Source: Candidatus Omnitrophota bacterium (GTDB lineage: Bacteria; Omnitrophota; Gorgyraeia; B26-G9). From it: 64,000 bases of DNA. Below, in pieces: positions 2,511-48,833 of this stretch. Position numbers and translations under genes: made by a program. Location: assembly GCA_043814605.1 (NCBI GenBank), contig JBDRJV010000037.1, positions 31,899 to 95,898 on the forward strand. The letters run 5' to 3'. How positions within the stretch are numbered: the stretch's first letter is position 1; each line of letters starts with the position of its first letter. The notes below the pieces were generated by a model. The model saw only the letters and a program-made list of their open reading frames with translations. It had not been told where the DNA came from and did no database searches.

Positions 2511-3572
2511 ATGCTGCAAAGTATATATTTTCAATTAAATAATTTTATGGCTTTTTACAATCTTTTTTCAGTACGGCAAGCAGCCAGTTTTTTACAAAAT
2601 TTGCCGTTATCAATTAATTTATTGAGAACGGCAAAGTGTAATTTAAATTGCCGGATTTGCTCAGCTAAAGACATGCTTAATATAGGGAATGAATTAACCA
2701 CGGGTGAAATCATCAGCTTTATTGAAAAAAATGCAGAGTATAAACCGATTTTTTTTATCGGAGGAGGAGAACCTTTTATCCGTAAGGATATCCTGGAATT
2801 TGCCAGAGTGTTCAGCCGGAATAAATTAAAATACGGGATTGTTACTAATGGGACTTTGCTTAATCCCGAAATTATGGGTGAATTGTTCAATAATAAATTA
2901 AATGTGCTGATTTTTTCTTTACATGGCAATCAGCTGCAGCATGATAAGGTGACCGGTAAAAGTGGGGCATATAGTTTAATTAGTAATAATATAAAATTTG
3001 CTGCGAAAAATAAGAAAAGTACTAAAATAATTTTAAATTTTGTAATAAATGAGGAGAATTATTTACAGCTTGAGCAAATTATTAAATTTGGAAAAAATCA
3101 AGGAGTAAATCAAGTAAGAATTGAGCATTTAATTTTTTTAACAAAAAATGAATACAAGCAGCATTTAGAAGTTTGCCGGAAACTTTTTCCAAAGAACAAT
3201 ACAAATCTTGTAATTTTTAAAAAGGATATTAATAATTTGGAAATTGGTGATTTTTTAAAAAAAGAGATACCTCGCTTAAAAAAGAAATACAAAAATTTTG
3301 TTTTATTTAAACCGCATTTGAGTCAAGCTGAAATTGAATCATGGTATTGTGAGAATTTTCAATTAAATCGTAAGTGTTTTTTTGTGCAGCATTCAGTTTT
3401 TGTAAACCCAAACGGAGATATTGTTCCCTGTCAGTTTTTAGGAAATTATAAACTAGGGAATATCAAGGAGGTTGAGTTAGTTGATGCCTGGCGAAATAAA
3501 GCCAGTCAAAATATTAAAAAAACTTTAAAGCAAAAGATTTTACCCGGATGTAACCGATGCTGTAAATTATGA
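2511..3572 (+). CDS. Radical SAM enzyme with C-terminal SPASM/twitch-like Cys-rich domain
   Basis: CxxxCxxC motif in RTAKCNLNCRICSAK and a GGE motif in FIGGGEPFIRKD. C-terminal cysteines occur in NPNGDIVPCQFL and LPGCNRCCKL. Confidence 0.8.
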   Translation: MLQSIYFQLNNFMAFYNLFSVRQAASFLQNLPLSINLLRTAKCNLNCRICSAKDMLNIGNELTTGEIISFIEKNAEYKPIFFIGGGEPFIRKDILEFARVFSRNKLKYGIVTNGTLLNPEIMGELFNNKLNVLIFSLHGNQLQHDKVTGKSGAYSLISNNIKFAAKNKKSTKIILNFVINEENYLQLEQIIKFGKNQGVNQVRIEHLIFLTKNEYKQHLEVCRKLFPKNNTNLVIFKKDINNLEIGDFLKKEIPRLKKKYKNFVLFKPHLSQAEIESWYCENFQLNRKCFFVQHSVFVNPNGDIVPCQFLGNYKLGNIKEVELVDAWRNKASQNIKKTLKQKILPGCNRCCKL

Positions 3573-4117
3573 AAATTTTGTTAAATAAAAGTTATAACTT
3601 ATTAAGGGATATATATTTAGAAAGCATTAATTTTACGGATAAAACTAAGCTTTTAGATATCGGTTGCGGTTTGAGGGGTAATTTTCTAAAGCTGCCTAAA
3701 TTTGTGTATACAGGTGTTGATGCTAATAAACATATTATTGCTAAATTGAGAAAGAAATCAGATGGGCTATATGAGTGTATGGATGCGAATGATTTAAAAT
3801 TTGAAAATAACTTTTTTGATTACATAATATCAACGAGTTTTTTCCATCATTGCTCAAAGAATAATATTCGTGCGATAGTAGAGCAAATAAAAAAGATTTT
3901 AAAAGATTCGGGAAAAATAATTATTGCAGATGGGGTATATCCGGATTCTAAAATTAATATTTTAGGATATTTAATTAGATTTTTTGACCGGGGTAGATTC
4001 GTGAGAAGAAAAGATGAATTCAGAGAGTTATTTGAGAATTTTTTTATTGTTAAAAAAGAAGTTTATTTTGTGAATAAGTTTTTTGCATATTACGTATTAG
4101 TAATGGAAAAAAAATAA
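3569..4117 (+). CDS. Class I SAM-dependent methyltransferase (small, Methyltransf_11-like)
   Basis: Motif I is LLDIGCGLRGN. An acidic post-I residue and FDYIISTSFFHHC are present. ATGA overlap with the upstream gene. It resembles the second small methyltransferase at 53697-54290 (FDYIILNNVLHHM). Confidence 0.7.
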   Translation: MKILLNKSYNLLRDIYLESINFTDKTKLLDIGCGLRGNFLKLPKFVYTGVDANKHIIAKLRKKSDGLYECMDANDLKFENNFFDYIISTSFFHHCSKNNIRAIVEQIKKILKDSGKIIIADGVYPDSKINILGYLIRFFDRGRFVRRKDEFRELFENFFIVKKEVYFVNKFFAYYVLVMEKK

Positions 4118-4118
4118 G

Positions 4119-5555
4119 ATGATAAATCAGTTAAAACAAAAAAAAAATAATTCAGAACTTTTAGTGTTTACAGTAATTTTAGCCTGTGGATTTTTTATGC
4201 GGCTTTTTTCTTTAATAAATTCAGATAATTTCCATGGTATTGCGGCAGGTAAAATTTTTGAAGCTCGTTATTTGCTCAAACATCCAGAGGAGCTTTGGGC
4301 TTGGATTGTCCCGGCCCATGGGCCGGTGCATTTATACTTGATCGCAATTTTATTTAAAATATTTGGTGATTATATAATTATTGCAAGATTAATAAGTTTA
4401 TTTTCCGGAGTGGCCTTATTTTTTCCCTATTATAAACTGATCAAACTTTCCTTCAGCAGAGATATTGCGCTTTTTAGTTGTTTTATCGCAGCTTTTTTTT
4501 ACTTACATGTAATTTATAGTGTGATTTCGACTGCGGAATCAATTTTTATTTTATTTTTATTTTCGGGGTTGTATTTTTATTTTAAATATTTCCAAAGTCA
4601 AAGAGTTTTTGAGTTGATAATTTCTGCGCTTTGTGTAGGAGTTTCAAGTATGTGTCGATTTGAAGGAGGGTTATACATAGTTTTATTAAGTGCTTTTTTA
4701 ATAAAAAAACCAAAAATAATGTTGATTTTTTTAATAAGTTCCTGTATGTTGCCTTGGGTTTGGATAGTTTTTAATTTTATTTTGTACGGCGATTTTTTCT
4801 ATTTTTTAACATCAAGCGATAATATCGTAAAGTATGAATTTGATAACCTAAAAGTTTACGGAACTCAATATACAATAACCGAGAGAATTTTATATTGGCC
4901 AATGGTATTAAAAGGGTATTTTGGAAATATATTATTTATTTTCGGTATAATCGGGCTTTGGTCTAATTTTCGCAACGCTAAAACTAAACTGCTGTTAGTT
5001 CTATTCCTGAGTATTTTAGGTTTTTTTATTTTTAAAACTTTTTATAAAGAACTGGCAATGCAGCCGCGTTATGGATTAAGTCTCGGATGCTTATTCATCC
5101 CGTTTATTGCAGATGCCTTATTAACTGGCTATACAAGAGTAAAAAAAATTTCCAAAAATTTAATACTGGCTCGGGATCAATTTAAAATGCTATTTTTTTT
5201 AATTCTTTTTTATATAGTAATAAGAGGATCATATTTAAGTTTAGTGCAATTACCGCATACTCCTCTCTGGGTAGAGAAAACAGCTAAATTTCTTGCTGCT
5301 AATGTAGACGAAAATAAAAATGAATTAGTGTATATTGATTCTGATGATGATAATTTTATAGAGCCGATTAAAATTTTATCGGGACTGGATGTGGACAGTT
5401 TTGTGGATATGCAGGCAGAAGGAACACATAAAGAATTGATTGAATCAGCTTCTTTAAAAAATATTAAATATCGTATTTTAATTTCAAAAACCAGGAATCT
5501 TAATTTAAAACAAATTTTTCAAGCTTCTGATTGTAAAATTTATAAAATAAAGTAA
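4119..5555 (+). CDS. Polytopic GT-C-type glycosyltransferase (paralogue set with 5561 and 8297)
   Basis: 478 aa and multi-TM, with a soluble C-terminal domain. First-loop motif is SDNFHGIAAGK. It shares CRFEGG and QPRYGLSLG blocks with the next gene. Confidence 0.5.
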   Translation: MINQLKQKKNNSELLVFTVILACGFFMRLFSLINSDNFHGIAAGKIFEARYLLKHPEELWAWIVPAHGPVHLYLIAILFKIFGDYIIIARLISLFSGVALFFPYYKLIKLSFSRDIALFSCFIAAFFYLHVIYSVISTAESIFILFLFSGLYFYFKYFQSQRVFELIISALCVGVSSMCRFEGGLYIVLLSAFLIKKPKIMLIFLISSCMLPWVWIVFNFILYGDFFYFLTSSDNIVKYEFDNLKVYGTQYTITERILYWPMVLKGYFGNILFIFGIIGLWSNFRNAKTKLLLVLFLSILGFFIFKTFYKELAMQPRYGLSLGCLFIPFIADALLTGYTRVKKISKNLILARDQFKMLFFLILFYIVIRGSYLSLVQLPHTPLWVEKTAKFLAANVDENKNELVYIDSDDDNFIEPIKILSGLDVDSFVDMQAEGTHKELIESASLKNIKYRILISKTRNLNLKQIFQASDCKIYKIK

Positions 5556-5560
5556 ATTAT

Positions 5561-7057
5561 ATGTCAAATAAAATCACTAAAAGCAGCATCATTTTAATCC
5601 TGATAATAACCGCGATCTTTATAGGTTTAAGATTATTTTTATTACTGGACACGGATACTTTTCATGGTATTGCCGCAGGAAGAACTTTGCTTGCAGAATT
5701 AATATTAAGGAACGGTTTTTATTCAAAGTTATGCTTTGTTCCCGTACATCCGCCAATACATACAGTTATGCTAGTTGCGGGATTGTTTATCTGGAATAAT
5801 CCGATAATTTTACCTGGGTTAGTAAGTTTATTTTTCGGGACGCTTACTTGCCTTCCTTTTTATTACTATAACAAAAGTGTTTTTGATGAAAAAGTGGCTG
5901 TATTTTCGCTAGCAGCAATTAGTTTGTATTCTGATCATATTGCTTATAGTATTATTGGGACTTCAGAAACAATTTTTCATTTTTTTCTTTTCAGTAGTTT
6001 AGTTTTTGCTTTATTTTTTAAAAAAAACAAGAATATGCGGTATTTTTATCTGAGTGCAATAATGATTTCAATAGCTAGTTTATGCCGGTATGAAGGAATA
6101 ATATTTATCCCTTTTTTTTCTGTTTTTTTAACTAAGAAAATAAAAAATATTATTCTCTTTCTAATTGTTTCTTTAATTTTACCGGGTATATGGATGTGCG
6201 TAAATTTTTATTTTACCGGAAATTTTATATATTTTTTAAATACTAATGATATTACCGTACCTTTACAATTTAATTGGATGCGGTTGCAGGGGCTAGATAT
6301 AAACGTTACTTATAAAATTCTATTTTGGCCGCGAGTTTTAATCAATACAATAGGAGTATTTTTTCTTTTTTTTGGACTTGGGGGAGTTATCTTTTGTTTA
6401 AAGAGAGGAGAAAAATTATTTCCGGCAGGATTAGTCATATTTATATTATGTTTATTTGTATTAAGAACTTATCAAGAAAAACTCTATTTGCAGACTCGCT
6501 ACGGCATAACCATTGGTTTATTATTAATTCCTTTTGCAATTTACTTTTTTCAGGTTACTGTTAAAAAGATTAATCGTAACTTGCCGGACTGGTTAGTTTT
6601 ATTTTTACTTTTGACCCTGATTCCTGCCTGGGGAAAGACACTTTCCCAGGAAAGCTTATTTCTCCCGGATACAGTTAAAAATATAAGCAGTTTTTTAGGT
6701 AAAGAAGTTAAAGAAAATGAAAATATTTTTATAACTTCAGAACAAAATGAAAATTATCGTGAAGTGATAAAATTAAGAAGCCGTCTTAATCCTAAACAAT
6801 TTATACTAATTCCGTATCTTGAGCCGTATGAAAACAAATTTATTATAAAACTGGAAACATTTTTTCAATATTTAGAAAAAGAGAATATTAAGTTTTTTGT
6901 CTATTCTCCAGAGGGAGAGTTAGGAAATATTCTGAAATTTGAGGGAAAAGGGGAAAAGTTTAATATGAATGGGTTCTGGTTCAAGCTTATTTATAAAAAT
7001 AGATTATATCATATTTATAAGGTAGACCCTTTAAAAGAGGGGGTAGAAGATGTTTAA
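5561..7057 (+). CDS. Polytopic GT-C-type glycosyltransferase (tandem paralogue of 4119-5555)
   Basis: 498 aa. It carries TDTFHGIAAGR, CRYEGI and QTRYGITIG blocks collinear with the upstream gene. Multi-TM with a soluble C-terminus. Confidence 0.5.
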   Translation: MSNKITKSSIILILIITAIFIGLRLFLLLDTDTFHGIAAGRTLLAELILRNGFYSKLCFVPVHPPIHTVMLVAGLFIWNNPIILPGLVSLFFGTLTCLPFYYYNKSVFDEKVAVFSLAAISLYSDHIAYSIIGTSETIFHFFLFSSLVFALFFKKNKNMRYFYLSAIMISIASLCRYEGIIFIPFFSVFLTKKIKNIILFLIVSLILPGIWMCVNFYFTGNFIYFLNTNDITVPLQFNWMRLQGLDINVTYKILFWPRVLINTIGVFFLFFGLGGVIFCLKRGEKLFPAGLVIFILCLFVLRTYQEKLYLQTRYGITIGLLLIPFAIYFFQVTVKKINRNLPDWLVLFLLLTLIPAWGKTLSQESLFLPDTVKNISSFLGKEVKENENIFITSEQNENYREVIKLRSRLNPKQFILIPYLEPYENKFIIKLETFFQYLEKENIKFFVYSPEGELGNILKFEGKGEKFNMNGFWFKLIYKNRLYHIYKVDPLKEGVEDV

Positions 7058-8282
7058 ATTGTGCCGAGGCCGAATAATATTTTCAATGGATATATTCGGA
7101 GATTTAATTAAAAGTTTTTTTAGTAAAAAAAATAATGGAGAGTTAACTATTAAAAAATTTGAAGATGATTTTGCTCAATATATTGGCAGTAAACATGCAG
7201 TTGCGGTTGCTTCGGGTAAGATGGCATTGTATTTAACGTTGAAGGCATTAGGCGCAAAGGAGGGGGATCAGATTATTATTCCTGCCTATACAGTTAGCGA
7301 AGTTATTGATGTAATTATTCTTTGTAAATTAATACCGGTTTTTGTGGATATTAATCTTAAAGACGCGAATATTGATGTATCCTTGATTGAAAAAAGAATT
7401 ACTCCGAATACTAAATTTATCTTAATGGTACATATGTTTGGATGCCCCTGTGACATTGATGAAATAATTGCAATAAGCAAAAAATATAATCTTAAAGTTA
7501 TTGAAGATGGAGCTCAGAGCTGTGGGGCTGAATATAAAGGAAAAAAAATAGGAAGTTTTGGTGATATTGGGTATTTTAGCTTTGGCATCATGAAAAATTT
7601 AAATACATTAGGCGGGGGAATGATTGTAGCGCAAAATTCTGATCGAATAAATTTTATTAGAAAACAGATAAATAAGTTTTCTGAAAATTTGATGGGGCAA
7701 CTTTTTAAAAAAACGGTTTTAGTTTTTTTTGTATCTATACTAACTACGCCGGTTATATTCTCATTTGTAGTATATCCGTTACTATTTATTATCGAAGAGA
7801 ACAGAAGAGAAAAAATATTTAAGAGTTTATTTAAAGCTAGACCTGTAACAGCACAGTGTATGGAAAAGCTAAAAGTAAAATTTTCTCCTTATCAAGCGGC
7901 GATTGGCATAGCCGGCCTTAAAAAAATTGAACAGATAAATCAAAAGCGGATAAATAATGCTAAAGTTCTAAATCAGGCTCTTAATAATATCGATGGTGTT
8001 TCTTTGATTAAAGAATCAAGTGATTCAAAAAACATTTATTTAAACTATGTGATCCGCATTAATAACAGACAAAAACTAATTAATCGTATGTTTAATAAAG
8101 GAATTGATGTAAGTGCGGGGTTTATTGAATGCTGTCCGGATTTAGCCAGATTTGAGCTTTACCAGTGCGATTGTCCTAGAAGCAGGATTTGGGAAAAAGA
8201 AAATCTATATTTACCGGTTTATCATCCGCTGAAAAGAGAAGTAATGATAAAAATTTCGAAATTAATAAAGGAAGCATTGTGA
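7050..8282 (+). CDS. DegT/DnrJ/EryC1/StrS-family PLP-dependent sugar aminotransferase with an internal hydrophobic insertion
   Basis: AVASGKMALYLTLKALGAKEGDQIIIPAYT, VIEDGAQSCGAEYKGKKIGSFGDIGYFSFGIMKNL (candidate PLP lysine) and GGGMIV match the family. An alternative start is at 7086 (MDIFGDL). Confidence 0.8.
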   Translation: MFKLCRGRIIFSMDIFGDLIKSFFSKKNNGELTIKKFEDDFAQYIGSKHAVAVASGKMALYLTLKALGAKEGDQIIIPAYTVSEVIDVIILCKLIPVFVDINLKDANIDVSLIEKRITPNTKFILMVHMFGCPCDIDEIIAISKKYNLKVIEDGAQSCGAEYKGKKIGSFGDIGYFSFGIMKNLNTLGGGMIVAQNSDRINFIRKQINKFSENLMGQLFKKTVLVFFVSILTTPVIFSFVVYPLLFIIEENRREKIFKSLFKARPVTAQCMEKLKVKFSPYQAAIGIAGLKKIEQINQKRINNAKVLNQALNNIDGVSLIKESSDSKNIYLNYVIRINNRQKLINRMFNKGIDVSAGFIECCPDLARFELYQCDCPRSRIWEKENLYLPVYHPLKREVMIKISKLIKEAL

Positions 8283-8296
8283 AAAATAATCATAGC

Positions 8297-9676: not shown

Positions 9677-9689
9677 ATTGTTAATAAAA

Positions 9690-10781: not shown

Positions 10782-10786
10782 AAAAA

Positions 10787-38199: not shown

Positions 38200-38918
38200 T
38201 GGTAGTTGATGAAATATCTTTAATTGTCCCTGTTTATAATGAGCAGGAATTAATTCAAGAAACAGTAGAAATATTTTTAACAGATTTATCAAATATCTGT
38301 AAAAATTATGAATTGATTATAGTTGATGATGCGAGCACAGATGAGACAGCAGAGATTTTAAAGAATCTGAAATCTAAATATCAACACCGGTTAATAGTTA
38401 TTACAAATGAGAAAAATATAGGTGGTGGCCGGAGTTTAATTAAGGGCTTTCACGCGGCTAGATATTCGCTTGTGGCAACAAACTTTGCGGATAGGCCATT
38501 TAATTTATTAGAACTTAAAAATATATTACCAAAATTTTTAAAGAATATTGATTTTATCGTTGTGGTCCGTAAAAATAGGTCCGCTAACAGTGTTTACCGT
38601 AAAATTACTTCTCTGATTAATTATTATTTAATTCGGCTGCTTTTTAATATAAAAGTTAAGGATTTCCAATTTGTCCAGATTTATAAAAGAGAAATATTAC
38701 AATCGATAAGCGTAGATTCCCACAGAACTTTTGTGCCCCCGGAAATTATTATTAGGCTGCTTTTGAATAATTACATTATGGATGAATATGAAGCCGATTT
38801 TTATCCGAGGACAAAAGGGATGGCTAAGTGCGGAAATCCGCGGATAATTTTAAGGGCAATTTATGATATGTTTTCTTTCTGGGTAAATTTAAATTTATTG
38901 AAAAAATATAGGGATTAA
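38199..38918 (+). CDS. GT2 polyprenol-phosphate glycosyltransferase-like (DPM1/ArnC/GtrB-like)
   Basis: ISLIVPVYNEQELIQETVE..LIIVDDASTDETAEIL and YYLIRLLFNIKVKDFQFVQIYKREIL. The track ORF starts at 38154, but ATG 38199 (TAATG junction) is preferred. Confidence 0.7.
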   Translation: MVVDEISLIVPVYNEQELIQETVEIFLTDLSNICKNYELIIVDDASTDETAEILKNLKSKYQHRLIVITNEKNIGGGRSLIKGFHAARYSLVATNFADRPFNLLELKNILPKFLKNIDFIVVVRKNRSANSVYRKITSLINYYLIRLLFNIKVKDFQFVQIYKREILQSISVDSHRTFVPPEIIIRLLLNNYIMDEYEADFYPRTKGMAKCGNPRIILRAIYDMFSFWVNLNLLKKYRD

Positions 38919-41972: not shown

Positions 41973-43166
41973 ATGTCTATTTCGAGAAGAAATTTTTTAA
42001 AAAATAGTTTAAAATTTTGTGCAGGAGTTGGATTATGCATCTTAACAAAAAGTTTCTGGGATAATTTTGAAAATACAGAAAGGATAGACAATTTTTTATT
42101 AAAAGAAGCAAAATATTATCGTAAAGGAAGTAACAATACTGTGCAATGCTTATTATGTGCCAGAAATTGTGTAATTAAGGATAAAAAAAGAGGGTTTTGC
42201 CAAGCCAGGATAAATAGTAAAGGTAAATTATTTAGTATGGTATACGGAAGTGTGATTATAACCCATTCAAAGGATAGACCGTTTAGGTCTTTGATTTATT
42301 TTGCTAATGATATTGAAGGGCTATGTATTGGTACAGCTGGATGTAATATGAGATGCAAGTTTTGTCTTGCCTCAGGAATTAGTCAGGTAAAACCTGAAGA
42401 TATTAAGATTAATAATAGATTTCCTTTTACTATGAATAAGAAACAAAATAAGACTCAGATTCTTCCAGATCAATTGATAAGCATGGCCAAAAAAAACAAT
42501 GTAAAATTAATTCATTTTAATCTTAATGAACCTACAATATATTATGAGTATATGCTAGATGTGGCAAAAATAGCGGTAAAAAATGGAATTTTTACAATGC
42601 TATGGAGCAATGCATATATAAATAGGGACCCTTTGCTTGAGTTAGCTCCTTATTTAGGCGGAGCGAGCATTGGATTGAAAGCTTTTAACAATGATATCTA
42701 TAAAAAGTTTTGCAGCGGAGAATTAAGTCCGGTTTTAGATACTTTAAAGTTGCTGAAAAAACAAAAAATTCCTTTTGAGATAATTTATCCAGTCATTCCG
42801 ACTGTTAATGATGATACTCAACAAATTAAAGATATGTGTTTTTGGATTAAAGATAAATTGGGTACGGAAGTGCCATTGCATTTTTATCGTTTCCTGCCTA
42901 GGTATAAATTAGTTAATTATCCTCCAACCCCTATCTCAACCTTGGAATCCATACAGAGTTTGGCTAAAAATACTGGTCTAAAATATGTATATGTTTTCTA
43001 TATGGGAGATTATCCTATCCCGGGCATGGAAGAAAAAATTTATTGTCCAAATTGTAAGAAATTAGTTTTATTACGTAAAAATTTAAATAATCTTGTAATA
43101 AATAATACGAAAAATTCCTGTTGTAAATTTTGCGGTGAAAAATTACTTTTTTTTATTTTTAAATAA
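41973..43166 (+). CDS. PflA/AmmeMemoRadiSam-like radical SAM enzyme with N-terminal twin-arginine signal and C-terminal zinc ribbon
   Basis: The N-terminus MSISRRNFLKNSLKFCAGVGLCIL carries the canonical S-R-R-x-F-L-K. AKYYRKGSNNTVQCLLCARNCVIKDKKRGFCQARINSKGKLF is the family-typical CxxCxxxC..G-x-C-x-x-R block. The radical SAM motif is GTAGCNMRCKFCLA. The C-terminus has CPNCKK..CCKFCGEKL. Confidence 0.7.
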   Translation: MSISRRNFLKNSLKFCAGVGLCILTKSFWDNFENTERIDNFLLKEAKYYRKGSNNTVQCLLCARNCVIKDKKRGFCQARINSKGKLFSMVYGSVIITHSKDRPFRSLIYFANDIEGLCIGTAGCNMRCKFCLASGISQVKPEDIKINNRFPFTMNKKQNKTQILPDQLISMAKKNNVKLIHFNLNEPTIYYEYMLDVAKIAVKNGIFTMLWSNAYINRDPLLELAPYLGGASIGLKAFNNDIYKKFCSGELSPVLDTLKLLKKQKIPFEIIYPVIPTVNDDTQQIKDMCFWIKDKLGTEVPLHFYRFLPRYKLVNYPPTPISTLESIQSLAKNTGLKYVYVFYMGDYPIPGMEEKIYCPNCKKLVLLRKNLNNLVINNTKNSCCKFCGEKLLFFIFK

Positions 43167-43234: not shown

Positions 43235-44644
43235 ATGAGAGTTCAATTTATTTTTCCGCCTTATACGCATAAAAAATTTGAAGAGGACATTTCAATTGTC
43301 AGCCGTAGATTTGGTATTTTCCCGCCGTTAGGGCTTGCATTTGCGGCGGCTATTTTAGAGGCACAGGGACATTGTGTGGATATTATTGATGCGCGGGCTT
43401 CGAATCTATCAAAAGAGCAGACACTGCAAAGAATAAAATATTTTCAGCCTAAATTACTGGGATTTATGCTCACGTTTTATATGTTTCATGATACTTTAGT
43501 CTGGATTAAATTTTTTAAAGAAAAAACTAATATCCCGATTATTGTCGGTAATGTATTAATGGAGTTTTTCCCGCAGGACGTGATGGCGTATCCTGAGATT
43601 GATTATGGAATTATTGGCTCCGCGCAAAAAAATTTACCGCTACTCATAGAATTTTTGGAAAATAATAAAAATATCGAAAACATTAGTGGGCTTTGTTATC
43701 GTAAAGATGGACAAGTAATTATTAATAAACCCAAAGAATTATTTGAGGATTTTCAGACTTTGCCTTTTCCGGCAAGGCATTTATTGCCTAATCATAAGTA
43801 CCATGCGGTAATGTCAAAACGTAAAAATCTTACGATAATGGTTACAACCCGTGGATGTGCCGCTAGCTGTAATTTCTGTCATATTAAAGATATTAAATAT
43901 TCAGCTAGGTCAGCCCAGATGGTTGTGGATGAAATGCAAGAGTGTTATGAAAAATTTAATGTGCGTGAAATTGAAATATTTGATCCTACTTTCAATATGG
44001 ATAAACGCAGAGTGATGGATATTTGCCAAGGCATAGTTGATAGAAAACTGGATATTGATTGGGCTTGCCGTGCGAGAATTGATTGCATGAACCCAGAAAT
44101 GTTGAAAATTATGTGTCAGGCTGGGTGCAAAAGAATATTATACGGGATTGAATCAGGCGATGAAAATATTCTTAAAAAAATTAAGAAAGGAATAAATTTA
44201 TCACAAATTAGAGATACGATTAAAGCTACCCAAGATTTAGGAATAAAGGCATTAGGATTTTTTCTTTTAGGGAGTCCCGGAGATAGTTTAAAAACTATTA
44301 ATAAAACAGTTAAATTTGCTAAAGAATTAAAGCTTGATTATGCGCAATTTCATAAAACAATAGCAAAACCTGGAACCGAATTGTACGACCAAGTTAAGAA
44401 TTATACAGGACGCGATTTATGGAGAGAATATATTCTAGGTAAATATCCAGAATCAAGATTACCTACGCCTTGGACAGATTTATCAGCTCAAACCATAGAG
44501 CAGTGCACTTATCAAGCGTATCGAAAATTCTATTTTAGAATTGGTTACCTCTGGCAAACTCTTAGAGGAATAAAATCATTTCATGAATTTAAGAGATACC
44601 TAGCTTCTTTTTTTGGTTTAATTTTTGAAAAACGGGATTATTAA
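43235..44644 (+). CDS. B12-binding-domain radical SAM enzyme (subfamily B)
   Basis: FPPLGLAFAAAILEAQGHCVDIIDA, LLGFML, LPFPARHLLPNHKY, VTTRGCAASCNFCHIKD and ILYGIESGDENIL. Confidence 0.8.
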   Translation: MRVQFIFPPYTHKKFEEDISIVSRRFGIFPPLGLAFAAAILEAQGHCVDIIDARASNLSKEQTLQRIKYFQPKLLGFMLTFYMFHDTLVWIKFFKEKTNIPIIVGNVLMEFFPQDVMAYPEIDYGIIGSAQKNLPLLIEFLENNKNIENISGLCYRKDGQVIINKPKELFEDFQTLPFPARHLLPNHKYHAVMSKRKNLTIMVTTRGCAASCNFCHIKDIKYSARSAQMVVDEMQECYEKFNVREIEIFDPTFNMDKRRVMDICQGIVDRKLDIDWACRARIDCMNPEMLKIMCQAGCKRILYGIESGDENILKKIKKGINLSQIRDTIKATQDLGIKALGFFLLGSPGDSLKTINKTVKFAKELKLDYAQFHKTIAKPGTELYDQVKNYTGRDLWREYILGKYPESRLPTPWTDLSAQTIEQCTYQAYRKFYFRIGYLWQTLRGIKSFHEFKRYLASFFGLIFEKRDY

Positions 44645-44659: not shown

Positions 44660-46144
44660 ATGAAAATAATGTTTTATTATTCTGCCTTTGAAAATTTAGG
44701 CATTGAATATCTTTCTGCAGTTTTAAAACAATCCGGACATAAAACCCGCCTTCTCTTTGATCCGGGTTTATTTAACGACCCTTTTTTGAGTATTAAACCA
44801 TTGGCTAAAATTTTCAACTGGGAGAAAAAATTATTACGTGAATTTACCCAATACAATCCGGGTTTAGTAGCCTTTTCTGTGACGAGTTCAACTTATTTAG
44901 CCGCATTGGATTTTTCAAAAAAACTTAAAAAAATAACGAAAATTAAAATAGTTTTTGGCGGGATCCATGCCAGTGCAGTGCCAGAGGTTGTTATAAAGGA
45001 TGATGCAGTTGATTACTTAATTGTGGGTGAAGCAGAAGAAGCTTTATTGGAACTAGTCGAGGCATTAGAAAACAATAAACCGATTAATAGCATTAAAAAT
45101 CTGTGGTATAAAGATAGGTATAAAATCTTTAATAATTCTTTAAGAGACTATATTACTGATCTTGATAAACTTCCATTTCCAGATAAGGATCTTTATTATG
45201 ATCAAATTCCTGAATATAGAAGCGGGTATACAATAATTACCCGCCGGGGTTGTCCGAATCATTGTGCTTATTGCCATAATAGTTTATGGCATAAATTATA
45301 TAAAGATTATGACAGTGAAATTGTCCGGTACCGAGGGGTAGATAATGTAATTACAGAGTTAAAACAGGCAAAAAAAAAGTATAATTTTAAAAGGGTTCGC
45401 ATAAACGATGAAATTTTTACTCTTAATGAAGGCTGGTTAAAGGAATTCTCTGCAATGTATAAGAAATATATTAATCGGCCAATGTTCTGTTTTGTTAGTC
45501 CTCATACTGTAAACGAAAAAACTGTAGAATGTTTAAAAGCTATGAATTGTTATCAGGTTTGTATGGGTGTGCAAACTCTAAATGAAGAAAAGAATAGAAT
45601 CTTGTTAAACCGCAATCAAACTAATAATCAGGTAAAACAGGCAATTAAATTATTTCGTGAATATAAAATTCGTTGTGTTGTGGATAATATAATTGGTTTA
45701 CCTGGTGAAAAGGAAGAAGATTTATTGCAGATGGCAAGGTTTTATAATAATAACCGTCCCGATAGGATTTGTATTTTTTGGCTGATTTATTTCCCTGGGA
45801 CAAAAATTATAGATGCAGGATTAGAAAAAGAGGTGCTTAACCAAAAAATGCTAGAAGAAATTAAAACAAATCCGCAAGCTACAGCGAATACTATCTATAG
45901 TCTGTTACATGAAAGGGGCAAGAATAAGTATTATATTTTGCTTCTGCTGATACATTTTTTACCTAAAAATATTATTGATTTTATCATAAAGAAAAGATTA
46001 TTTGAATTATTTTCATTATTAAACCCCTCGTTGATTGAAATCCCTTTTACGATGATTGCTCGGGACAGATTAGATATAGTCAGACGCAGATATTATTCAC
46101 GTTATATCAAATATGGAATTAAAAAATTATTTTTAGTTGGATAA
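44660..46144 (+). CDS. B12-binding-domain radical SAM enzyme (subfamily A)
   Basis: MKIMFYYSAFENLGIEYLSAVLKQSGHKTRLLFDPGLF, VFGGIHASAVPE, LPFPDKDLY, ITRRGCPNHCAYCHNS and FLPKNIIDFIIKKRLF. Confidence 0.8.
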   Translation: MKIMFYYSAFENLGIEYLSAVLKQSGHKTRLLFDPGLFNDPFLSIKPLAKIFNWEKKLLREFTQYNPGLVAFSVTSSTYLAALDFSKKLKKITKIKIVFGGIHASAVPEVVIKDDAVDYLIVGEAEEALLELVEALENNKPINSIKNLWYKDRYKIFNNSLRDYITDLDKLPFPDKDLYYDQIPEYRSGYTIITRRGCPNHCAYCHNSLWHKLYKDYDSEIVRYRGVDNVITELKQAKKKYNFKRVRINDEIFTLNEGWLKEFSAMYKKYINRPMFCFVSPHTVNEKTVECLKAMNCYQVCMGVQTLNEEKNRILLNRNQTNNQVKQAIKLFREYKIRCVVDNIIGLPGEKEEDLLQMARFYNNNRPDRICIFWLIYFPGTKIIDAGLEKEVLNQKMLEEIKTNPQATANTIYSLLHERGKNKYYILLLLIHFLPKNIIDFIIKKRLFELFSLLNPSLIEIPFTMIARDRLDIVRRRYYSRYIKYGIKKLFLVG

Positions 46145-46177: not shown

Positions 46178-47167
46178 ATGAATTCAGGATTATTGAATAT
46201 ATTAAAAATTGTTAGAATTTTTTTTAAAGTAAAATTTTTTAGAAATAAAATTCCTATTTTTGTGGGCTGGGATTTAACTTACAGGTGTAACTTTAATTGT
46301 CAATATTGTAAAATTCCGAAACTTGATACCGATCGAGAATTGTCAACGGATAAGGTGTTAAAAATGATAGATCAGTTTAGTAAACTTGGTGTTTGCCGTA
46401 TACATTTTGGTGGGGGAGAGGTTCTATTACGAGATGATCTTGATCAAATTTTAAAATTTTGTAAAAAAAGAAATATTTATACTGTTATTCTCACAAATGG
46501 AGCTTTATTTGAAGCTAAGATACCTGTTATAAAGAAAGCAAATCTAATAAAAGTAAGTTTTGATGGTCCTGCTAAAATTCATGATAATTTGCGTCATAAG
46601 GGGTCTTATAGTCAGATTGTTAAAGTATTAGTTTTAGCAAAAAAACTTAAAATAAAAGTAACGTTAAGTGCAACTTTAACTAGAAAAAATTATGAATATA
46701 TTGATTATATTTTAGATTTTGCTAAAGAAAATAGGACCCCAGTAAAATTTCAGTTAGTTAATGAGTTCTTGTCAGGATCTAAAGACATTGCTAATCTTAA
46801 GCTTTCCCGAGAGCAGCAGCAGAAGGCAATGGGAAAATTATTAAAGGAAAAAAAGAGGAGCGGGTATATAATAAATTCTAAAAATGCACTGGAGTATATG
46901 CGTGATTACCCAAATGTAAAAAATTTATGTTGTACGGCAGGAAAGCTTTATGTGCGTGTTTCTGTTGATGGAAGGCTATATCCGTGCGAAATACTAAAAG
47001 ATGAGTTTTTAAAAAATACATCTTTTGAAAAAGATATCGGTAAATCATTCAAAGTATTAAAAAATGTTAATTGTAAATATTGTTTATGTACTACAACATT
47101 AGAATTAAATCAATTATTTTCTTTAAATTTAAATGCAATTTTTAATGGGCTAAAGTATTTTAGTTAA
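46178..47167 (+). CDS. Radical SAM enzyme with SPASM/twitch-like C-terminus
   Basis: WDLTYRCNFNCQYCKIP and FGGGEVLLRDD are present. C-terminal cysteines occur in CCTAGKLYVRVSVDGRLYPCE and VNCKYCLCTT. Similar to 22287-23339. Confidence 0.75.
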   Translation: MNSGLLNILKIVRIFFKVKFFRNKIPIFVGWDLTYRCNFNCQYCKIPKLDTDRELSTDKVLKMIDQFSKLGVCRIHFGGGEVLLRDDLDQILKFCKKRNIYTVILTNGALFEAKIPVIKKANLIKVSFDGPAKIHDNLRHKGSYSQIVKVLVLAKKLKIKVTLSATLTRKNYEYIDYILDFAKENRTPVKFQLVNEFLSGSKDIANLKLSREQQQKAMGKLLKEKKRSGYIINSKNALEYMRDYPNVKNLCCTAGKLYVRVSVDGRLYPCEILKDEFLKNTSFEKDIGKSFKVLKNVNCKYCLCTTTLELNQLFSLNLNAIFNGLKYFS

Positions 47168-47387
47168 AATTTAATATGGCTAAGAACTAATTCTATATTA
47201 AGAATTATAGAAGAACTTTTCCGTGTTATTAATAAAAAAATGGTTCGATTGTGGAAACAAAGTTTAACGTTTTTTTTCGACAATATTGCTTTTGTATTTT
47301 TAGAATTGATAAACGAATCTTCAATTAGAAATAAGAACTGTAGTTTAAAAGTAATTTTTTTATTACCAACACTATGGAGGATGAAGT

Positions 47388-48833
47388 TTGAAAATATTAC
47401 TTATAGTTGAGGAAACTTTTTATATGGATAGACTGGGCATTTTATATTTAAGTTATCCTCTAAAGCGTTTCAACTATGATGTCAAACTTGCTGTTTTTGC
47501 TAAAGAGGGGTTTCCAGGAATAGAACAAATAATGCAAGAATATTCTCCGGATATTGTTGGTTATAGTATGATGACTGGTGAGTATAATACGCTTAATAGA
47601 GTAAATAAGTATTTAAAAAATAAATTTAATTTTTTATCAGTTTTTGGAGGTCCTCACCCGACATTTTATCCGGATTTAATTAAAGAATCCCATATTGACG
47701 CAATTTGTGTAGGAGAGGGAGATATTGCTTTTGCGGAGTTTTGTCGGAGAGTTAAAGAGAGCGATAAATATTGGCAAACTCCAGGGTTTTATGTAAAGCA
47801 TAATGGTAATATTTTTAGTAATCCACTATTATCTTTAGTTAAAGATTTAGACCAATTATCTTTTCCAGATAGAAAATTAATGTATGAGGCCCAACCTGAT
47901 GTCTATGAAGATGGAACCAAAGTTTTTATATCTTCTCGTGGATGCCCTTATAGTTGTTCATATTGTTTTAATAAAAAATATAATGATATTTATAAAAATA
48001 AGTCAATTGTAGTTCGTCATCGTTCGCCTAATAATGTAATTCAGGAAATTGATGCTACTAAGCAGGAATACGGATTAAGACATGTATTTTTTTTAGATGA
48101 TATTTTTACGATAAAACCTAAGGGATGGGTAGAAGAGTTTTCAACACTATATAAGCAAAAGATTGATCTGCCGTTTTCTTGTCACGTACGTGCAAATCTG
48201 GTAAGCGATAGTGAGATAAAACTATTAAAAAATGCCGGCTTAAATTCAGTTTTAATCGGAATAGAATGTGGGGATGAGAGAGTATCAAATGAAGTGTTAA
48301 ATAGAAATTTATCGAATAAAATAATTTTTCAAGCAATACAAATTTTAAAAAAACATGATATTAAAATATGGACACATAATTTATTGGGGATCCCAGTTAA
48401 GGATAGTTTCGAAGTAGGAATTAAAACGCTTGATATGAATTTAAAAATAAGACCAGTTTATGCCCATTCAGGCTTACTTTTTCCTTATCCTGGGACTGAA
48501 ATTCGGAAGCAATCATTACGAAATAATTTTTTGAATGAAAATAGTGTTTTTTTTGAAACTCATCAAAAATATTCAGTTTTTAATTTTAATAAAAAAGAAA
48601 AATCTCAGATTGAAAGATTGCATTATTTATTTGGATTAACAGTTCGTTTTCCTTTTTTACGTAAAATAATTAGATTGCTTGTAAAAATTCCTTTATCAGG
48701 ATTTTATTTTATGATTTTTTATGTTTGGTATGGATACAATCTTAAATTTAAATTTTTTCCCATGCAGTCTTGGACAAAAGAAATAAAAAAATATGTCAAA
48801 TTAGGGGAAAAGATACTAAAAAAACATAATTAA
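47388..48833 (+). CDS. B12-binding-domain radical SAM enzyme (distant member of subfamily A)
   Basis: TTG start, with the RBS-like ggagga ending 6 nt upstream of it. MDRLGILYLSYPLKRFNYDVKLAVF, VFGGPHPTFYP, LSFPDRKLMY, ISSRGCPYSCSYCFNK and LIGIECGDERVSNEVL. Confidence 0.75.
   Translation: MKILLIVEETFYMDRLGILYLSYPLKRFNYDVKLAVFAKEGFPGIEQIMQEYSPDIVGYSMMTGEYNTLNRVNKYLKNKFNFLSVFGGPHPTFYPDLIKESHIDAICVGEGDIAFAEFCRRVKESDKYWQTPGFYVKHNGNIFSNPLLSLVKDLDQLSFPDRKLMYEAQPDVYEDGTKVFISSRGCPYSCSYCFNKKYNDIYKNKSIVVRHRSPNNVIQEIDATKQEYGLRHVFFLDDIFTIKPKGWVEEFSTLYKQKIDLPFSCHVRANLVSDSEIKLLKNAGLNSVLIGIECGDERVSNEVLNRNLSNKIIFQAIQILKKHDIKIWTHNLLGIPVKDSFEVGIKTLDMNLKIRPVYAHSGLLFPYPGTEIRKQSLRNNFLNENSVFFETHQKYSVFNFNKKEKSQIERLHYLFGLTVRFPFLRKIIRLLVKIPLSGFYFMIFYVWYGYNLKFKFFPMQSWTKEIKKYVKLGEKILKKHN

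Follow-up and report, generated by a model that had tools for sequence, protein, structure and literature searches.

A conserved Omnitrophota operon that sets twenty radical SAM genes among genes for sugar transfer

Gene layout and radical SAM content

The window, by which we mean the whole 64,000-nucleotide stretch analysed here, comes from the metagenome-assembled genome of an uncultured Candidatus Omnitrophota bacterium. All 49 listed ORFs of at least 150 aa, and hence every feature described below, lie on the + strand; 43 of them fall between 54 and 54290, an operon span of ~54 kb in one direction with 20 radical SAM genes amid sugar-transfer genes. The first ORF (54–833) encodes 259 aa with a single hydrophobic segment towards the N-terminus, near residue 36; it has no Pfam match, and its place in the unit is uncertain. 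At the other end, a class I SAM methyltransferase gene (53697–54290; PF13489, PF08241) closes the block, and the dcw cluster, marked by Pfam matches, follows (54531–64000). In order, that cluster holds mraZ, rsmH, an ftsL-like gene, ftsI, murE and murF, then two genes of unknown function, then mraY. The mraZ-like and ftsL-like ORFs were named by position and length against related loci L003–L005, and mraY, with MraY motifs in frame +3, runs past the window end.

The 20 radical SAM ORFs proposed in an earlier, sequence-only reading proved correct. In a regex scan of the 49 ORFs, every one of the 20 had a single CxxxCxxC and the remaining 29 lacked the motif, and HMM searches for the radical SAM fold found it in all 20, with PF04055 above its gathering score (E 2e-10 to 4e-24). 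Two starts given in that reading, 24780 and 27512, lie inside the ORFs called here from 24753 and 27509, and they agree with the lengths of the NCBI proteins, 451 and 447 aa. To our knowledge, 20 radical steps would be far above the need of any characterised sugar pathway, a point against the glycoconjugate reading given below.

The four architectures assigned earlier stood for the most part. Six enzymes join PF23545 (Zn_ribbon_HMPTM) to the radical SAM domain (23388, 24753, 26145, 27509, 30448 and 33882), nine carry a PF02310 B12-binding domain (10787, 20818, 28860, 35228, 36739, 40167, 43235, 44660 and 47388) and two match SPASM (PF13186; 2511 and 32930). Two others counted with the SPASM set, 22287 and 46178, had no SPASM match in Pfam but show a C-terminal C-x17-C...CxxCxC pattern, and the label 'twitch-like' is plausible for them, not shown. 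The remaining enzyme does have the claimed twin-arginine motif, and its former label, PflA-like, is refined to AmmeMemoRadiSam-type. Because scores against every named radical SAM model except TIGR04337 were far below the curated cut-offs, functional analogies hold only at the family level.

B12-domain enzymes

HpnJ was the best NCBIfam model for two of the nine B12 enzymes (all PF02310 and PF04055), namely 10787–12253 (TIGR03471, 152 bits; cut-off 578) and the HpnJ/AprD4-like group III enzyme at 43235–44644 (193 bits; AprD4 in the PDB at 9.5e-24). It came a close second for the group II enzyme at 40167–41591 (BchE 183, HpnJ 177 bits), which matched AprD4 (8e-14), CysS and TokK in the PDB. BchE was the best named model for 28860–30458 (TIGR02026, 165 bits; cut-off 481), an enzyme with orthologues at 66–69% in L001, L092 and L094. 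Group I comprises copy 1 (20818–22284), with reciprocal-best orthologues in L001 (49%) and L087 (45%); copies 2 (35228–36715) and 3 (36739–38199), with reciprocal-best orthologues at 46–58% in the same two loci; copy 4 (44660–46144), 39–41% identical to copies 1–3; and a divergent member (47388–48833) at 29–32% identity to the group. In metagenome loci, group III is one of the radical SAM types seen most frequently next to YfhO-like genes.

Zinc-ribbon enzymes

Four zinc-ribbon genes (PF23545 and PF04055) stand in tandem (23388–24746, 24753–26135, 26145–27512 and 27509–28855). They are mutual best matches with 56–60% protein identity and only 62–79% DNA identity, which rules out an assembly repeat and marks them as real diverged paralogues. 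A fifth enzyme (30448–31851; PF23545, PF04055) has a reciprocal-best orthologue in L001 (48%), and a sixth (33882–35222; PF23545, PF04055) has orthologues in L001 (52%) and L087 (42%). The whole fold is common to them and the archaeal tetraether synthase GDGT-MAS: the tandem paralogues matched PDB 7tol at E 3.5e-40, and a model reached TM 0.76 to 7tom. One auxiliary Fe-S motif of GDGT-MAS is missing and scores are far below its family cut-off, so we consider the six a new Tes/GDGT-MAS-like subfamily.

Group I B12 and zinc-ribbon types co-occur in nearly every close locus, and a natural 950-aa fusion, P0050, unites a B12 radical SAM with a zinc-ribbon radical SAM enzyme; group I copy 2 is 40% identical to its N-terminal half and zinc-ribbon enzyme 6 is 41% identical to its C-terminal half. 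Two other genomes hold reciprocal-best orthologues of group I copies 1–3 and of zinc-ribbon enzymes 5 and 6, so each of these functions is old and has been maintained separately.

SPASM, twitch-like and AmmeMemoRadiSam-type enzymes

The SPASM enzyme at 2511–3572 (PF04055 6.5e-18, PF13186 3.4e-12) has a domain-matched homologue that opens the colinear locus L161. The second (32930–33895; PF04055, PF13186) overlaps a DegT aminotransferase gene (31866–32933; PF01041 1.2e-91), and the pair is kept at 45–60% in L001, L086–L091 and L093; the best PDB match of this radical SAM enzyme is BtrN (3e-10). The putative twitch-like enzyme at 22287–23339 (PF04055; Fer4_12, PF13353; C-terminal CxxCxC) has orthologues at 33–40% in L001, L004 and L089, and the other, type b (46178–47167; PF04055 4.5e-24; C-terminal CxxCxC; PTO1314 family, 119 bits; PDB matches PqqE and SkfB), is of a kind met repeatedly next to YfhO-like genes in loci from metagenomes. 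The AmmeMemoRadiSam-type enzyme (41973–43166; TIGR04337, 231 bits, above the cut-off of 220) lies after a 381-bp gap and starts MSISRRNFLK, with the twin-arginine motif SRRNFLK at residues 4–10.

Glycosyltransferases and other interleaved genes

The sugar-transfer genes named earlier (GT-C, GT2, GT4, DegT, deacetylase and O-antigen-ligase homologue) were all confirmed: four PMT_2 GT-Cs, one Pfam-silent paralogue and one YfhO-like GT-C, together with three GT2s, one GT4, three DegTs, one polysaccharide deacetylase and one Wzy_C protein. The PMT_2 proteins lie at 837–2510 (ArnT-like, ~13 hydrophobic segments; PF13231 33 bits, above cut-off), 4119–5555 and 5561–7057 (paralogous at 35% identity, both PF13231, the pair kept in L161) and 15776–17362 (PF13231). 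The silent paralogue (8189–9676; ~10 segments) is distantly related to the pair at 4119 and 5561 (23–27% identity, E ~1e-13 to 1e-15). Encoded at 18949–20805 is the YfhO-like membrane glycosyltransferase (NCBI locus tag ABIG64_08675), which has homologues with PF09586 named 'YfhO family' and orthologues at 36–43% in every related locus. A 278-aa secreted or anchored protein without a family match (18132–18968) is always encoded immediately 5' of the YfhO-like gene, with orthologues there at 32–42% in L001, L086–L091 and L093–L094.

The remaining transferases are a GT4 (9678–10781; PF13692, PF00534), a GT2 at 12250–13143 (PF00535 3.4e-29), a GT2 at 49120–50097 (PF13641; 49% orthologue ahead of Wzy_C in L004) and an ArnC-like GT2, a putative polyprenyl-phosphate sugar synthase (38154–38918; PF00535; best NCBIfam model ArnC; orthologues at 49–57%). 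Its top PDB matches, ArnC three times at ~5e-17 followed by DPM synthase and GtrB, are without exception polyprenyl-phosphate glycosyltransferases, and it adjoins a PseC/ArnB-like DegT (38925–40139; PF01041 2.8e-125; orthologues 56%; PseC 369 and ArnB 360 bits, both under cut-offs). Another DegT (7050–8282; PF01041 1.2e-73) has orthologues in L003–L005, L086–L088 and L161. The deacetylase (14833–15675; NodB fold with DUF3473; PF01522, PF11959) is nearest to the XrtA-system model TIGR03006 (118 bits), and the Wzy_C protein of the O-antigen ligase/polymerase family (50091–51755; PF04932 1.1e-10) has a 33% orthologue immediately ahead of mraZ in L003–L005. A ~12-segment membrane protein at 51758–53491 matched nothing in Pfam or NCBIfam, does not resemble the YfhO-like profile and has no counterpart between Wzy_C and mraZ in L003–L005.

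Smaller genes include a class I SAM methyltransferase (3569–4117; PF08241, PF13649; matching gene at the same position in L161), a 193-aa protein with a signal-peptide-like N-terminus and no family match (14245–14826; orthologues at 40–42% after DUF362 in L086 and L088) and a WbqC-family protein of unknown function (17362–18063; PF08889 1.7e-75; orthologues at 53–59% in L086 and L088). The Pfam family name WbqC derives from an O-antigen cluster gene.

Conservation across genomes

Comparison of neighbourhoods found the radical SAM and GT-C block conserved as a unit. It is colinear in six or more further Omnitrophota/PVC assemblies, each of which has between 7 and 15 radical SAM genes. GCA_022013205.1 is colinear with 18132–40139 at 36–66% identity and GCA_024231215.1 with 2511–22284 by domain content and order; GCA_030627865.1 keeps this order with 15 radical SAM genes, and its block finishes with GT2-DegT-GT2-Wzy_C-mraZ-rsmH-ftsL-ftsI. 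L003–L005, the loci whose downstream end was recovered, show the same junction to mraZ-rsmH-ftsL-ftsI. Further matches come from GCA_026387355.1 and several metagenome contigs, the former with a 1,048-aa fusion of radical SAM and two GT2 domains that links radical SAM with glycosyl transfer. As judged from these proteins, the two natural fusions, B12 with zinc-ribbon and radical SAM with GT2, tie the chemistry together. In ~15 metagenome contigs with YfhO-like genes at only 27–30% identity, the flanks hold group II/III B12 and twitch-like radical SAM enzymes, an ArnC-like GT2 and DegT.

Interpretation

Because the same block is kept in related genomes, we infer that the operon probably makes a heavily modified, uncharacterised cell-surface glycolipid or glycan; no published description of such a locus was found. 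The enzyme families, the conserved unit, the fusions and the lack of a peptide precursor are observed directly, and substrates, order of steps and product are inferred without biochemical data. We give an even chance to the fuller reading, in which this conserved operon of Omnitrophota serves to make an envelope glycoconjugate assembled on lipid carriers and tailored mainly by radical chemistry. Its glycan genes follow an Arn/YfhO logic: aminotransferase, ArnC-like polyprenyl-phosphate GT2, ArnD-family deacetylase and six GT-Cs (four of the PMT_2/ArnT family, the paralogue at 8189 and the YfhO-like protein). The pathway is incomplete as read, since the window shows no recognisable flippase (GtrA, ArnE/F or Wzx type), initiating phosphoglycosyl transferase or nucleotidyltransferase; some of these functions may be concealed in the three membrane or secreted proteins left without assignment. 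The failure to find any nucleotide-sugar 4,6-dehydratase or SDR among the 43 ORFs fits keto sugars coming from radical or NPN-type oxidation.

Whether the radical tailoring acts on the sugar or on a lipid tail is not resolved by the evidence. The sole characterised relative of the six zinc-ribbon enzymes acts on lipid tails, not sugars, whereas AprD4, HpnJ and BtrN, the nearest characterised relatives of other members, act on sugars or lipid-linked sugars and at the family level would support a glycan. A conventional RiPP cluster finds no support, with no precursor peptide in the window (the ORFs between genes are short and of low complexity, and relatives do not conserve them) and, by HMM search, no PqqD/RRE domain on any of the 20 enzymes. 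There is also no room for an N-terminal RRE in the SPASM-type enzymes because their CxxxCxxC begins at residues 27–43, and searches turned up neither a RiPP recognition domain nor a PKS or NRPS. The earlier proposal, radical tailoring of a polyprenol-linked glycan or a membrane lipid, thus survived the fold, conservation and precursor-peptide tests; its hedge marks the limit of the evidence, sharpened here and not resolved.

For the envelope glycoconjugate, the three DegTs would make amino sugars in the cytoplasm, at least one of them partnered by a BtrN-like radical SAM dehydrogenase that would take over from the usual NAD-dependent dehydratase in providing the keto group. The ArnC-like GT2, two more GT2s and the GT4 may then load the sugars onto a lipid acceptor, either polyprenyl phosphate or some other, and the radical SAM enzymes would modify these lipid-linked intermediates at the inner membrane face. 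The HpnJ/AprD4-related set would most likely work on the sugar (rearrangement, deoxygenation, C-methylation); the repeated pairs of group I B12 and Tes-like zinc-ribbon enzymes may act jointly on one substrate, for which a hydrocarbon chain seems a likelier candidate than a hexose. After flipping, the six GT-Cs and the Wzy_C protein would work on the periplasmic side and join the products to an acceptor in the envelope; a Tat-exported DUF362 enzyme is also predicted to act on that side.

The DUF362 protein (13140–14252; PF04015; Tat motif TRREFL) has relatives at 54–75% identity in >100 clusters, mostly from Omnitrophota. The top 19 PDB fold matches of its model (pLDDT 89) are all LarA-type enzymes, and it is a distant relative of the LarA clan. 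Its gene is among the best conserved of the unit.

Radical SAM content and conservation of the locus

All 49 open reading frames (ORFs) of at least 150 amino acids in the window lie on the plus strand, and 43 of them fall between positions 54 and 54290. The sequence-only reading had listed 20 of the 43 as radical SAM genes of four architectures, and this description held up. A motif scan found one CxxxCxxC motif in each listed ORF and none in the other 29, and all 20 proteins exceeded the Pfam gathering score for the radical SAM fold (PF04055, 41–86 bits against a cut-off of 29.5). Six join the radical SAM domain to a zinc ribbon (Zn_ribbon_HMPTM; ORF starts 23388, 24753, 26145, 27509, 30448 and 33882), nine to a B12-binding domain (10787, 20818, 28860, 35228, 36739, 40167, 43235, 44660 and 47388), four are SPASM/twitch-like and one (41973) carries a twin-arginine (Tat) motif. 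The SPASM/twitch-like enzymes divide into two with a SPASM domain (2511 and 32930; PF13186, 46–47 bits, cut-off 21.5) and two without a PF13186 match (22287 and 46178), which have only a C-x17-C...CxxCxC pattern near the C-terminus. Apart from TIGR04337, no curated NCBIfam equivalog cut-off was met by the radical SAM proteins of the window.

We interpret these genes and their neighbors as a conserved operon that builds an envelope glycoconjugate on lipid carriers, with radical SAM enzymes doing most of the tailoring; the product is inferred, and our confidence in this reading is about even. A full-text literature search on Omnitrophota or Omnitrophica with radical SAM, and on radical SAM-rich glycan loci, returned no description of the locus; if the reading is right, we know of no envelope pathway denser in these enzymes. 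What would be new here is the unprecedented number of radical SAM enzymes in a lipid-linked envelope glycan pathway, together with a new Tes-like subfamily. The nearest literature item is a cluster from groundwater Elusimicrobia, a sister PVC-group phylum, in which up to 13 radical SAM genes lie together; their copy number varies, and some encode B12 domains (bioRxiv 10.1101/765248). Its content is unrelated to that of the window: it is built on group VI nitrogenase (NifH/D/K) paralogues with a proposed tetrapyrrole-type cofactor, and glycosyltransferases and Tes-like enzymes are not described there (bioRxiv 10.1101/765248).

Gene order is retained in several related genomes. The closest database proteins were the window's own paralogues (Candidatus Omnitrophota MAG, locus tags ABIG64_); an exact-sequence look-up of two window proteins gave no match, and a single-protein scan of genome contigs confirmed no relative. 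A locus of GCA_022013205.1 is colinear with positions 18132–40139 at 36–66% identity and holds 11 radical SAM genes in 21 kb. GCA_030627865.1 (two loci, 15 radical SAM genes in total) has at its left end DUF362, an unknown gene, WbqC, a GT-C glycosyltransferase and, further on, an unknown gene and the YfhO-like gene; these are followed by SPASM, DegT, SPASM, zinc-ribbon and five B12 genes, and the right end runs through ArnC-like GT2, DegT, GT2, Wzy_C, mraZ, rsmH, ftsL and ftsI. The left half of the locus (2511–22284) is colinear by domain content and order with a 708-kb contig of GCA_024231215.1, and the same core occurs in GCA_026387355.1, one ENA contig and metagenome contigs L089–L094. Between the window and the locus of GCA_030627865.1 that includes the Wzy_C–mraZ junction, housekeeping neighbors are 66–74% identical and most cluster genes only 33–57%, so the locus is evolving more rapidly than the genes around it, in the manner of surface-structure loci.

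Old paralogues and lineage-specific expansions were told apart by reciprocal best hits. The fifth and sixth zinc-ribbon enzymes (30448 and 33882) and copies 1–3 of the group-I B12 enzymes (20818, 35228 and 36739) represent old orthologous groups that have been maintained separately, whereas the four tandem zinc-ribbon genes are a lineage-specific expansion in the window genome, as are the five B12 copies in GCA_030627865.1. A profile search with the YfhO-like protein returned 71 metagenome loci. Where the YfhO-like gene shares 32% identity or more with the query, zinc-ribbon and group-I B12 genes are usually present; around 15 loci at 27–30% identity are without the zinc-ribbon type but still have group II/III B12 and twitch-like radical SAM genes, ArnC-like GT2 and DegT; and those radical SAM, GT2 and DegT types are absent from most of the more distant loci and from every high-GC locus among them.

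Glycan and membrane machinery

The sugar genes outside the radical SAM set comprise four PMT_2 GT-C glycosyltransferases, all above the PMT_2 cut-off, and a Pfam-silent paralogue, a YfhO-like GT-C, three GT2 and one GT4. Further genes encode three DegT aminotransferases, a NodB-type deacetylase (14833), WbqC, DUF362, two SAM methyltransferases and a Wzy_C protein (50091; PF04932, 41.9 bits, cut-off 31.7). Sequence searches found no solved relative of WbqC or the YfhO-like protein. GT2 38154 is nearest to ArnC (three PDB entries, ~5e-17) and also resembles dolichol-phosphate-mannose synthase and GtrB; it scores 75 bits against an ArnC cut-off of 529, has no C-terminal membrane helices and adjoins an ArnB/PseC-like DegT gene (360–369 bits). 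By analogy, the set of DegT, ArnC-like GT2, deacetylase and PMT_2/YfhO GT-C enzymes would reproduce the logic of Arn and CsbB/YfhO-type extracytoplasmic glycosylation.

The likeness to the Arn pathway (ArnB/C/D/T) and to CsbB–GtcA–YfhO covers a DegT enzyme beside an ArnC-like GT2 that would load a sugar onto polyprenyl phosphate, a NodB-family deacetylase/deformylase, and PMT_2/ArnT- and YfhO-family GT-C proteins for transfer outside the cytoplasm. Unlike those systems, the window has no recognized ArnA-type enzyme, contains six GT-C proteins instead of one and interleaves them with 20 radical SAM genes, and all of its matches are under the equivalog cut-offs. No ORF or domain for a small flippase (GtrA/GtcA or ArnE/F) and no nucleotide-sugar dehydratase were recognized within the window. 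To our knowledge, the known Arn and CsbB–GtcA–YfhO systems include no radical SAM genes.

Two familiar lipid-linked pathways were considered and rejected. A canonical Wzy-dependent O-antigen locus should include Wzx, a chain-length regulator (Wzz) and an initiating phosphoglycosyl transferase, and these are missing from the 43 ORFs (no PF01943, PF02706, PF02397 or PF00953). The hopanoid HpnH–HpnI–HpnJ–HpnK pathway offers a closer parallel: GlcNAc is attached to a lipid by a GT2, a deacetylase exposes the amine and the B12 radical SAM enzyme HpnJ rearranges the lipid-linked sugar, and in the window 10787 (best model HpnJ), 12250 (GT2) and 14833 (deacetylase) all lie less than 5 kb apart. However, there is no squalene-hopene cyclase or other hpn gene in the window, matches to HpnJ, HpnR and HpnH are only sub-threshold (HpnJ 152–193 bits against a cut-off of 578), and HpnK belongs to a different deacetylase family.

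If the envelope-glycoconjugate reading is true, the locus would represent a feature conserved in a nanobacterial phylum that is widespread and uncultured, and bacterial surface glycan and glycolipid chemistry would widen to many anaerobic C–H functionalizations. In GCA_026387355.1 we also observed a 1,048-aa protein with radical SAM, Fer4_12 and two GT2 domains (locus L087, 1–2003; the fetched locus holds only its C-terminal part). Judged by its domains, this predicted fusion is a tie between radical chemistry and glycosyl transfer.

Tes-like enzymes and a possible role in lipid tailoring

The main alternative, which we hold only tentatively, is that hydrocarbon chains are the chief substrates of the radical SAM enzymes, in a bacterial counterpart of the archaeal GDGT toolkit. 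The product would then be a cross-linked, cyclized or methyl-branched, possibly membrane-spanning glycolipid for which the glycosyltransferases only build the head group, so that this explanation overlaps with the envelope-glycoconjugate reading. In archaea, Tes joins the tails, B12-type Grs forms rings, SPASM/twitch Gms forms bridges and B12-type Gmm methylates (PMC11214058). The three radical SAM classes of the window are those of archaeal tetraether tailoring, a correspondence at class level that involves no direct comparison with Grs, Gms, Gmm or Mss (PMC11214058).

The zinc-ribbon enzymes carry evidence on both sides. All six match PF23545 (46–59 bits) and keep, in alignment, the CxxC...CPxH ribbon motif of Tes/GDGT-MAS; the sequence match to GDGT-MAS is full length (PDB 7tol, E 3.5e-40); and a predicted model of 26145–27512 (pLDDT 89) aligned with 7tom at E 1.7e-31 and TM 0.76/0.70, compared with TM ≤0.40 for the next-best folds. 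Zinc ribbon, radical SAM core and C-terminal domain are common to the six window proteins and GDGT-MAS, which favors hydrocarbon substrates. Against them, all six lack the GCPxDCGLCPxH motif between ribbon and core, where the alignment has a gap of ~20 residues; in GDGT-MAS this motif presumably binds an auxiliary [4Fe–4S] cluster. It is also missing from the nearest bacterial relatives, whereas the three archaeal Tes homologues in the alignment and those from Acidobacteria and Sporomusa all have it. Scores for the NCBIfam Tes equivalog NF045702 were 123–159 bits against a cut-off of 450, about equal to those for TrsS, a model of unrelated function. With the defining cysteine motif absent and scores at one third of the cut-off, we rejected a classification of these enzymes as Tes. 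They further differ from Tes/GDGT-MAS (7TOL, 7TOM) in an extra hydrophobic helix, in numbering two to six copies per genome instead of one and in being surrounded by glycan genes, not archaeal lipid genes.

Other features also bear on a hydrocarbon substrate. Paralogues that act at different sites along a long chain are a known pattern (GrsA and GrsB) and would account for the five to six old paralogues per family better than a hexose would; the 'lipid biosynthesis B12/rSAM' model TIGR04072 also ranks in the top three for each of the five group-I B12 proteins (20818, 35228, 36739, 44660 and the divergent 47388). Hydrophobic or amphipathic helices occur in the zinc-ribbon and group-I enzymes (KD19 1.6–2.35, against 0.3–0.6 in the aligned region of archaeal Tes). 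These helices are borderline and contain lysines, so they are weak evidence only, and we rejected their interpretation as transmembrane helices. The window, moreover, contains no acyltransferase, ether-lipid, isoprenoid or fatty-acid synthesis gene. A natural 950-aa fusion (P0050) consists of an N-terminal group-I B12 enzyme, 40% identical to 20818 and 35228, and a C-terminal orthologue of the sixth zinc-ribbon enzyme (41%), and the window counterparts of the two halves, 33882 and 35228, are adjacent. Because such a fusion exists, sequence evidence alone suggests that a group-I B12 enzyme and a Tes-like enzyme would work as one unit, which again counts toward lipid tailoring.

The most novel proposal, which we regard as doubtful, is that Omnitrophota make an envelope lipid or glycolipid in which repeated pairs of B12 radical SAM and Tes-like enzymes, encoded next to cell-division genes, cross-link, cyclize and methylate the hydrocarbon part. 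The Tes-like partner would be a new type without one auxiliary cluster, and the system a bacterial, glycan-coupled analogue of archaeal tetraether tailoring. If true, the product would represent a new bacterial glycolipid class, membrane-spanning or ring-bearing, and the 'short' Tes-like family would gain a first function. The envelope-glycoconjugate reading, if right, would give a large, unstudied tetraether-synthase branch its first functional context, with bearing on the role of bacterial Tes homologues and on the producers of branched or bridged tetraether biomarkers.

The extent of that family was estimated with a profile search of 1.8 billion representatives, which recovered 998 proteins at E ≤1e-30. 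Among the best 150 of these, 133 have a single CxxxCxxC, so the 'short' type makes up most of them; as far as sequence can tell, the putative single-motif subfamily is sizeable and uncharacterized. Within the window, the tandem quartet (23388, 24753, 26145 and 27509) has a period of 1,365–1,389 nt, 56–60% protein identity and only 62–79% DNA identity, and its members are therefore diverged paralogues and not an assembly or repeat artifact.

Among the matches listed, Tes-like genes outside Omnitrophota are nearly always solitary. An alignment-based contig scan listed mostly solitary archaeal Tes genes, with Omnitrophota represented by one short contig. The exceptions are two contigs of 'uncultured Rickettsiales' MAGs (L013 and L016), which each carry eight radical SAM genes, namely four B12-type, two twitch-like, one further gene and a single short Tes-like gene around which the others lie; in neither did BLAST against the window proteins detect homologues of the glycan genes. 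Separately, a solitary branch of short Tes-like proteins (P0012, P0052, P0057 and P0112; locus L006) has an N-terminal hemerythrin domain, and one such protein is additionally fused to a P-type ATPase. This architecture hints at a possible part in O2 or metal sensing or protection.

B12, SPASM and twitch-like enzymes

All nine B12 proteins match PF02310 (38–80 bits, cut-off 32.1) as well as PF04055, and fall short of every characterized B12 radical SAM equivalog searched (HpnJ, BchE, HpnR, AprD4, PhpK, ladderane-type and others; best scores 99–193 bits against cut-offs of 251–775). The group-I enzymes 20818, 35228, 36739 and 44660 share 34–41% mutual identity and the other B12 enzymes only 22–28%. 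The nearest characterized proteins are AprD4 (PDB, 9.5e-24) and HpnJ (193 bits) for the group III enzyme 43235; AprD4, CysS and TokK for the group II enzyme 40167; and HpnJ for 10787, with weak matches to OxsB and CysS for 36739. AprD4 has a B12-binding domain and is not known to use cobalamin, so the domain alone is no proof of methylase activity, and cobalamin use and methyl transfer by the window enzymes can only be inferred. Among the SPASM/twitch-like enzymes, 32930 is nearest to BtrN (PDB, 3e-10), 22287 to MoaA, GDGT-MAS and BlsE, and 46178 to PqqE and SkfB. The 32930 gene overlaps the DegT gene at 31866, and the pair is kept in many related loci.

These matches raise the question whether the locus is a biosynthetic gene cluster with a diffusible product, a secondary metabolite resembling aminoglycosides or aminocyclitols; we consider this improbable. 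BtrN oxidizes an aminocyclitol hydroxyl that is then aminated by a DegT-family enzyme, AprD4 dehydrates an aminoglycoside diol and HpnJ rearranges a lipid-linked glucosamine. Aminoglycoside chemistry likewise joins DegT, a BtrN-type dehydrogenase, an AprD4-type dehydratase, B12 radical SAM C-methylases (compare GenK/GenD1), glycosyltransferases and a deacetylase, and the window offers BtrN as best PDB match of the DegT-paired 32930, AprD4 as best PDB match of both 43235 and 40167, and a GT4 and a deacetylase. The similarity to the aminoglycoside enzymes is, however, confined to the radical SAM core, and no cyclitol synthase, exporter or resistance gene was recognized in the window. Aminoglycoside clusters known to us make soluble antibiotics with one to three radical SAM enzymes and have no GT-C or Wzy_C membrane machinery. 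The locus instead encodes at least eight large polytopic membrane proteins (GT-C, Wzy_C and unknown), pointing to periplasmic transfer to an envelope acceptor, and its dcw-adjacent position and gene order are conserved across deeply diverged genomes, a pattern that core envelope functions typically show and sporadic biosynthetic gene clusters do not. Omnitrophota MAGs are reported to express many predicted biosynthetic gene clusters, which counts in favor of such a metabolite, and antiSMASH-type 'ladderane' calls have been reported among them (PMC9902471). Those calls may have picked up the B12 enzymes of this locus, an inference only; if our reading of it is right, the locus may lie behind 'ladderane' or RiPP calls that automated tools make in Omnitrophota MAGs.

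Least probable of all is that the enzymes modify a protein or peptide, by RiPP-like or surface-protein maturation, before glycosylation by PMT-family GT-C proteins: SPASM/twitch and B12 enzymes often serve as RiPP maturases, the weak NCBIfam matches include several RiPP models, protein O-mannosyltransferases belong to PMT_2 and the locus holds conserved secreted unknowns (14245 and 18132), but the RiPP models are all far below cut-off, searches turned up no PqqD/RRE domain (no PF05402 match in the window), no protease and no ABC exporter, the SPASM-type enzymes have their CxxxCxxC starting at residues 27–43, with no N-terminal RRE ahead of it, and cytoplasmic radical SAM enzymes would need to act on the signal peptide-bearing candidates before export. 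The absence of a precursor peptide noted in the sequence-only reading was borne out, since the gaps contain only low-complexity ORFs of 20–56 aa, none conserved or plausible as a precursor, and no small gene is shared among the related loci compared. With neither precursor nor RRE, a RiPP cluster was rejected. With its membrane transferases and conserved dcw-adjacent position, and without a precursor peptide, an RRE, an exporter or a resistance gene, the locus is unlikely to fit either the diffusible-metabolite or the peptide reading.

The remaining enzyme, 41973, exceeds the AmmeMemoRadiSam cut-off (TIGR04337, 231.3 against 220 bits); the AMMECR1 and Memo partner domains were found in none of the 49 window ORFs. 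Its N-terminus has an SRRNFLK twin-arginine motif followed by a hydrophobic stretch. Such a signal for Tat export is unexpected on a radical SAM enzyme, given that both SAM and the reductant are found in the cytoplasm.

DUF362, unassigned proteins and flanking genes

DUF362 (13140–14252) is among the best-conserved genes of the locus (54–75% identity, >100 clusters), and its product carries the Tat motif TRREFL. Genes for a larE-like protein, larB (AIRC) and larC (Ni_insertion) immediately precede it in GCA_021735655.1 (L162, 7215–11215), and the top 19 PDB fold matches of its predicted model are all LarA-type nickel-pincer enzymes, weakly (TM 0.35–0.38). On this model, DUF362 may be an enzyme that Tat exports and that works with the nickel-pincer cofactor, known to us so far only from LarA racemases/epimerases. 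Together with the B12 and Tes-like pair and the DegT and BtrN-like pair, the DUF362–larBCE neighborhood belongs to a set of natural fusions and conserved pairs that are directly testable in vitro. In GCA_021735655.1 the DUF362–GT-C–radical SAM block lies beside a Dlt-like set of an MBOAT protein, a carrier protein, an adenylating enzyme and a GDSL lipase, suggesting decoration or acylation of an envelope polymer. In the Omnitrophota loci outside the window genome where the DUF362 block adjoins such a set (L162, 1–7203; L160, 4263–5690), its genes encode MBOAT, a small carrier protein, an AMP-binding enzyme, an acyl-CoA dehydrogenase and a GDSL lipase.

Four proteins matched no Pfam or NCBIfam family: a membrane protein with ~12 hydrophobic segments (51758–53491) and three that are secreted or anchored (54–833, 14245–14826 and 18132–18968). 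Conserved orthologues of 14245 and 18132 stand at fixed sites in relatives. The 51758 protein showed no similarity to the YfhO-like profile in hhalign, and it has no counterpart between Wzy_C and mraZ in the three related loci with that junction (L003–L005).

Directly 3' of the locus lie mraZ, rsmH, ftsL, ftsI, murE, murF, two unknown genes and mraY. The two unknown genes (60954–63130), one with a weak DUF3108-like match and the other encoding 482 aa without a match, separate murF and mraY, which are normally adjacent in dcw clusters. Rfam detected no riboswitch or other RNA in the window, and no tRNA was found; promoter and terminator scans of the window performed no better than on shuffled sequence, so transcription units could not be defined. 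The GC content is ~25–35% and GC skew is positive throughout. At 48000–54000, which spans a GT2, Wzy_C and the unknown membrane protein, GC content is 0.25–0.26 compared with ~0.29–0.33 elsewhere; this dip could reflect membrane-protein composition or a segment exchanged more recently.
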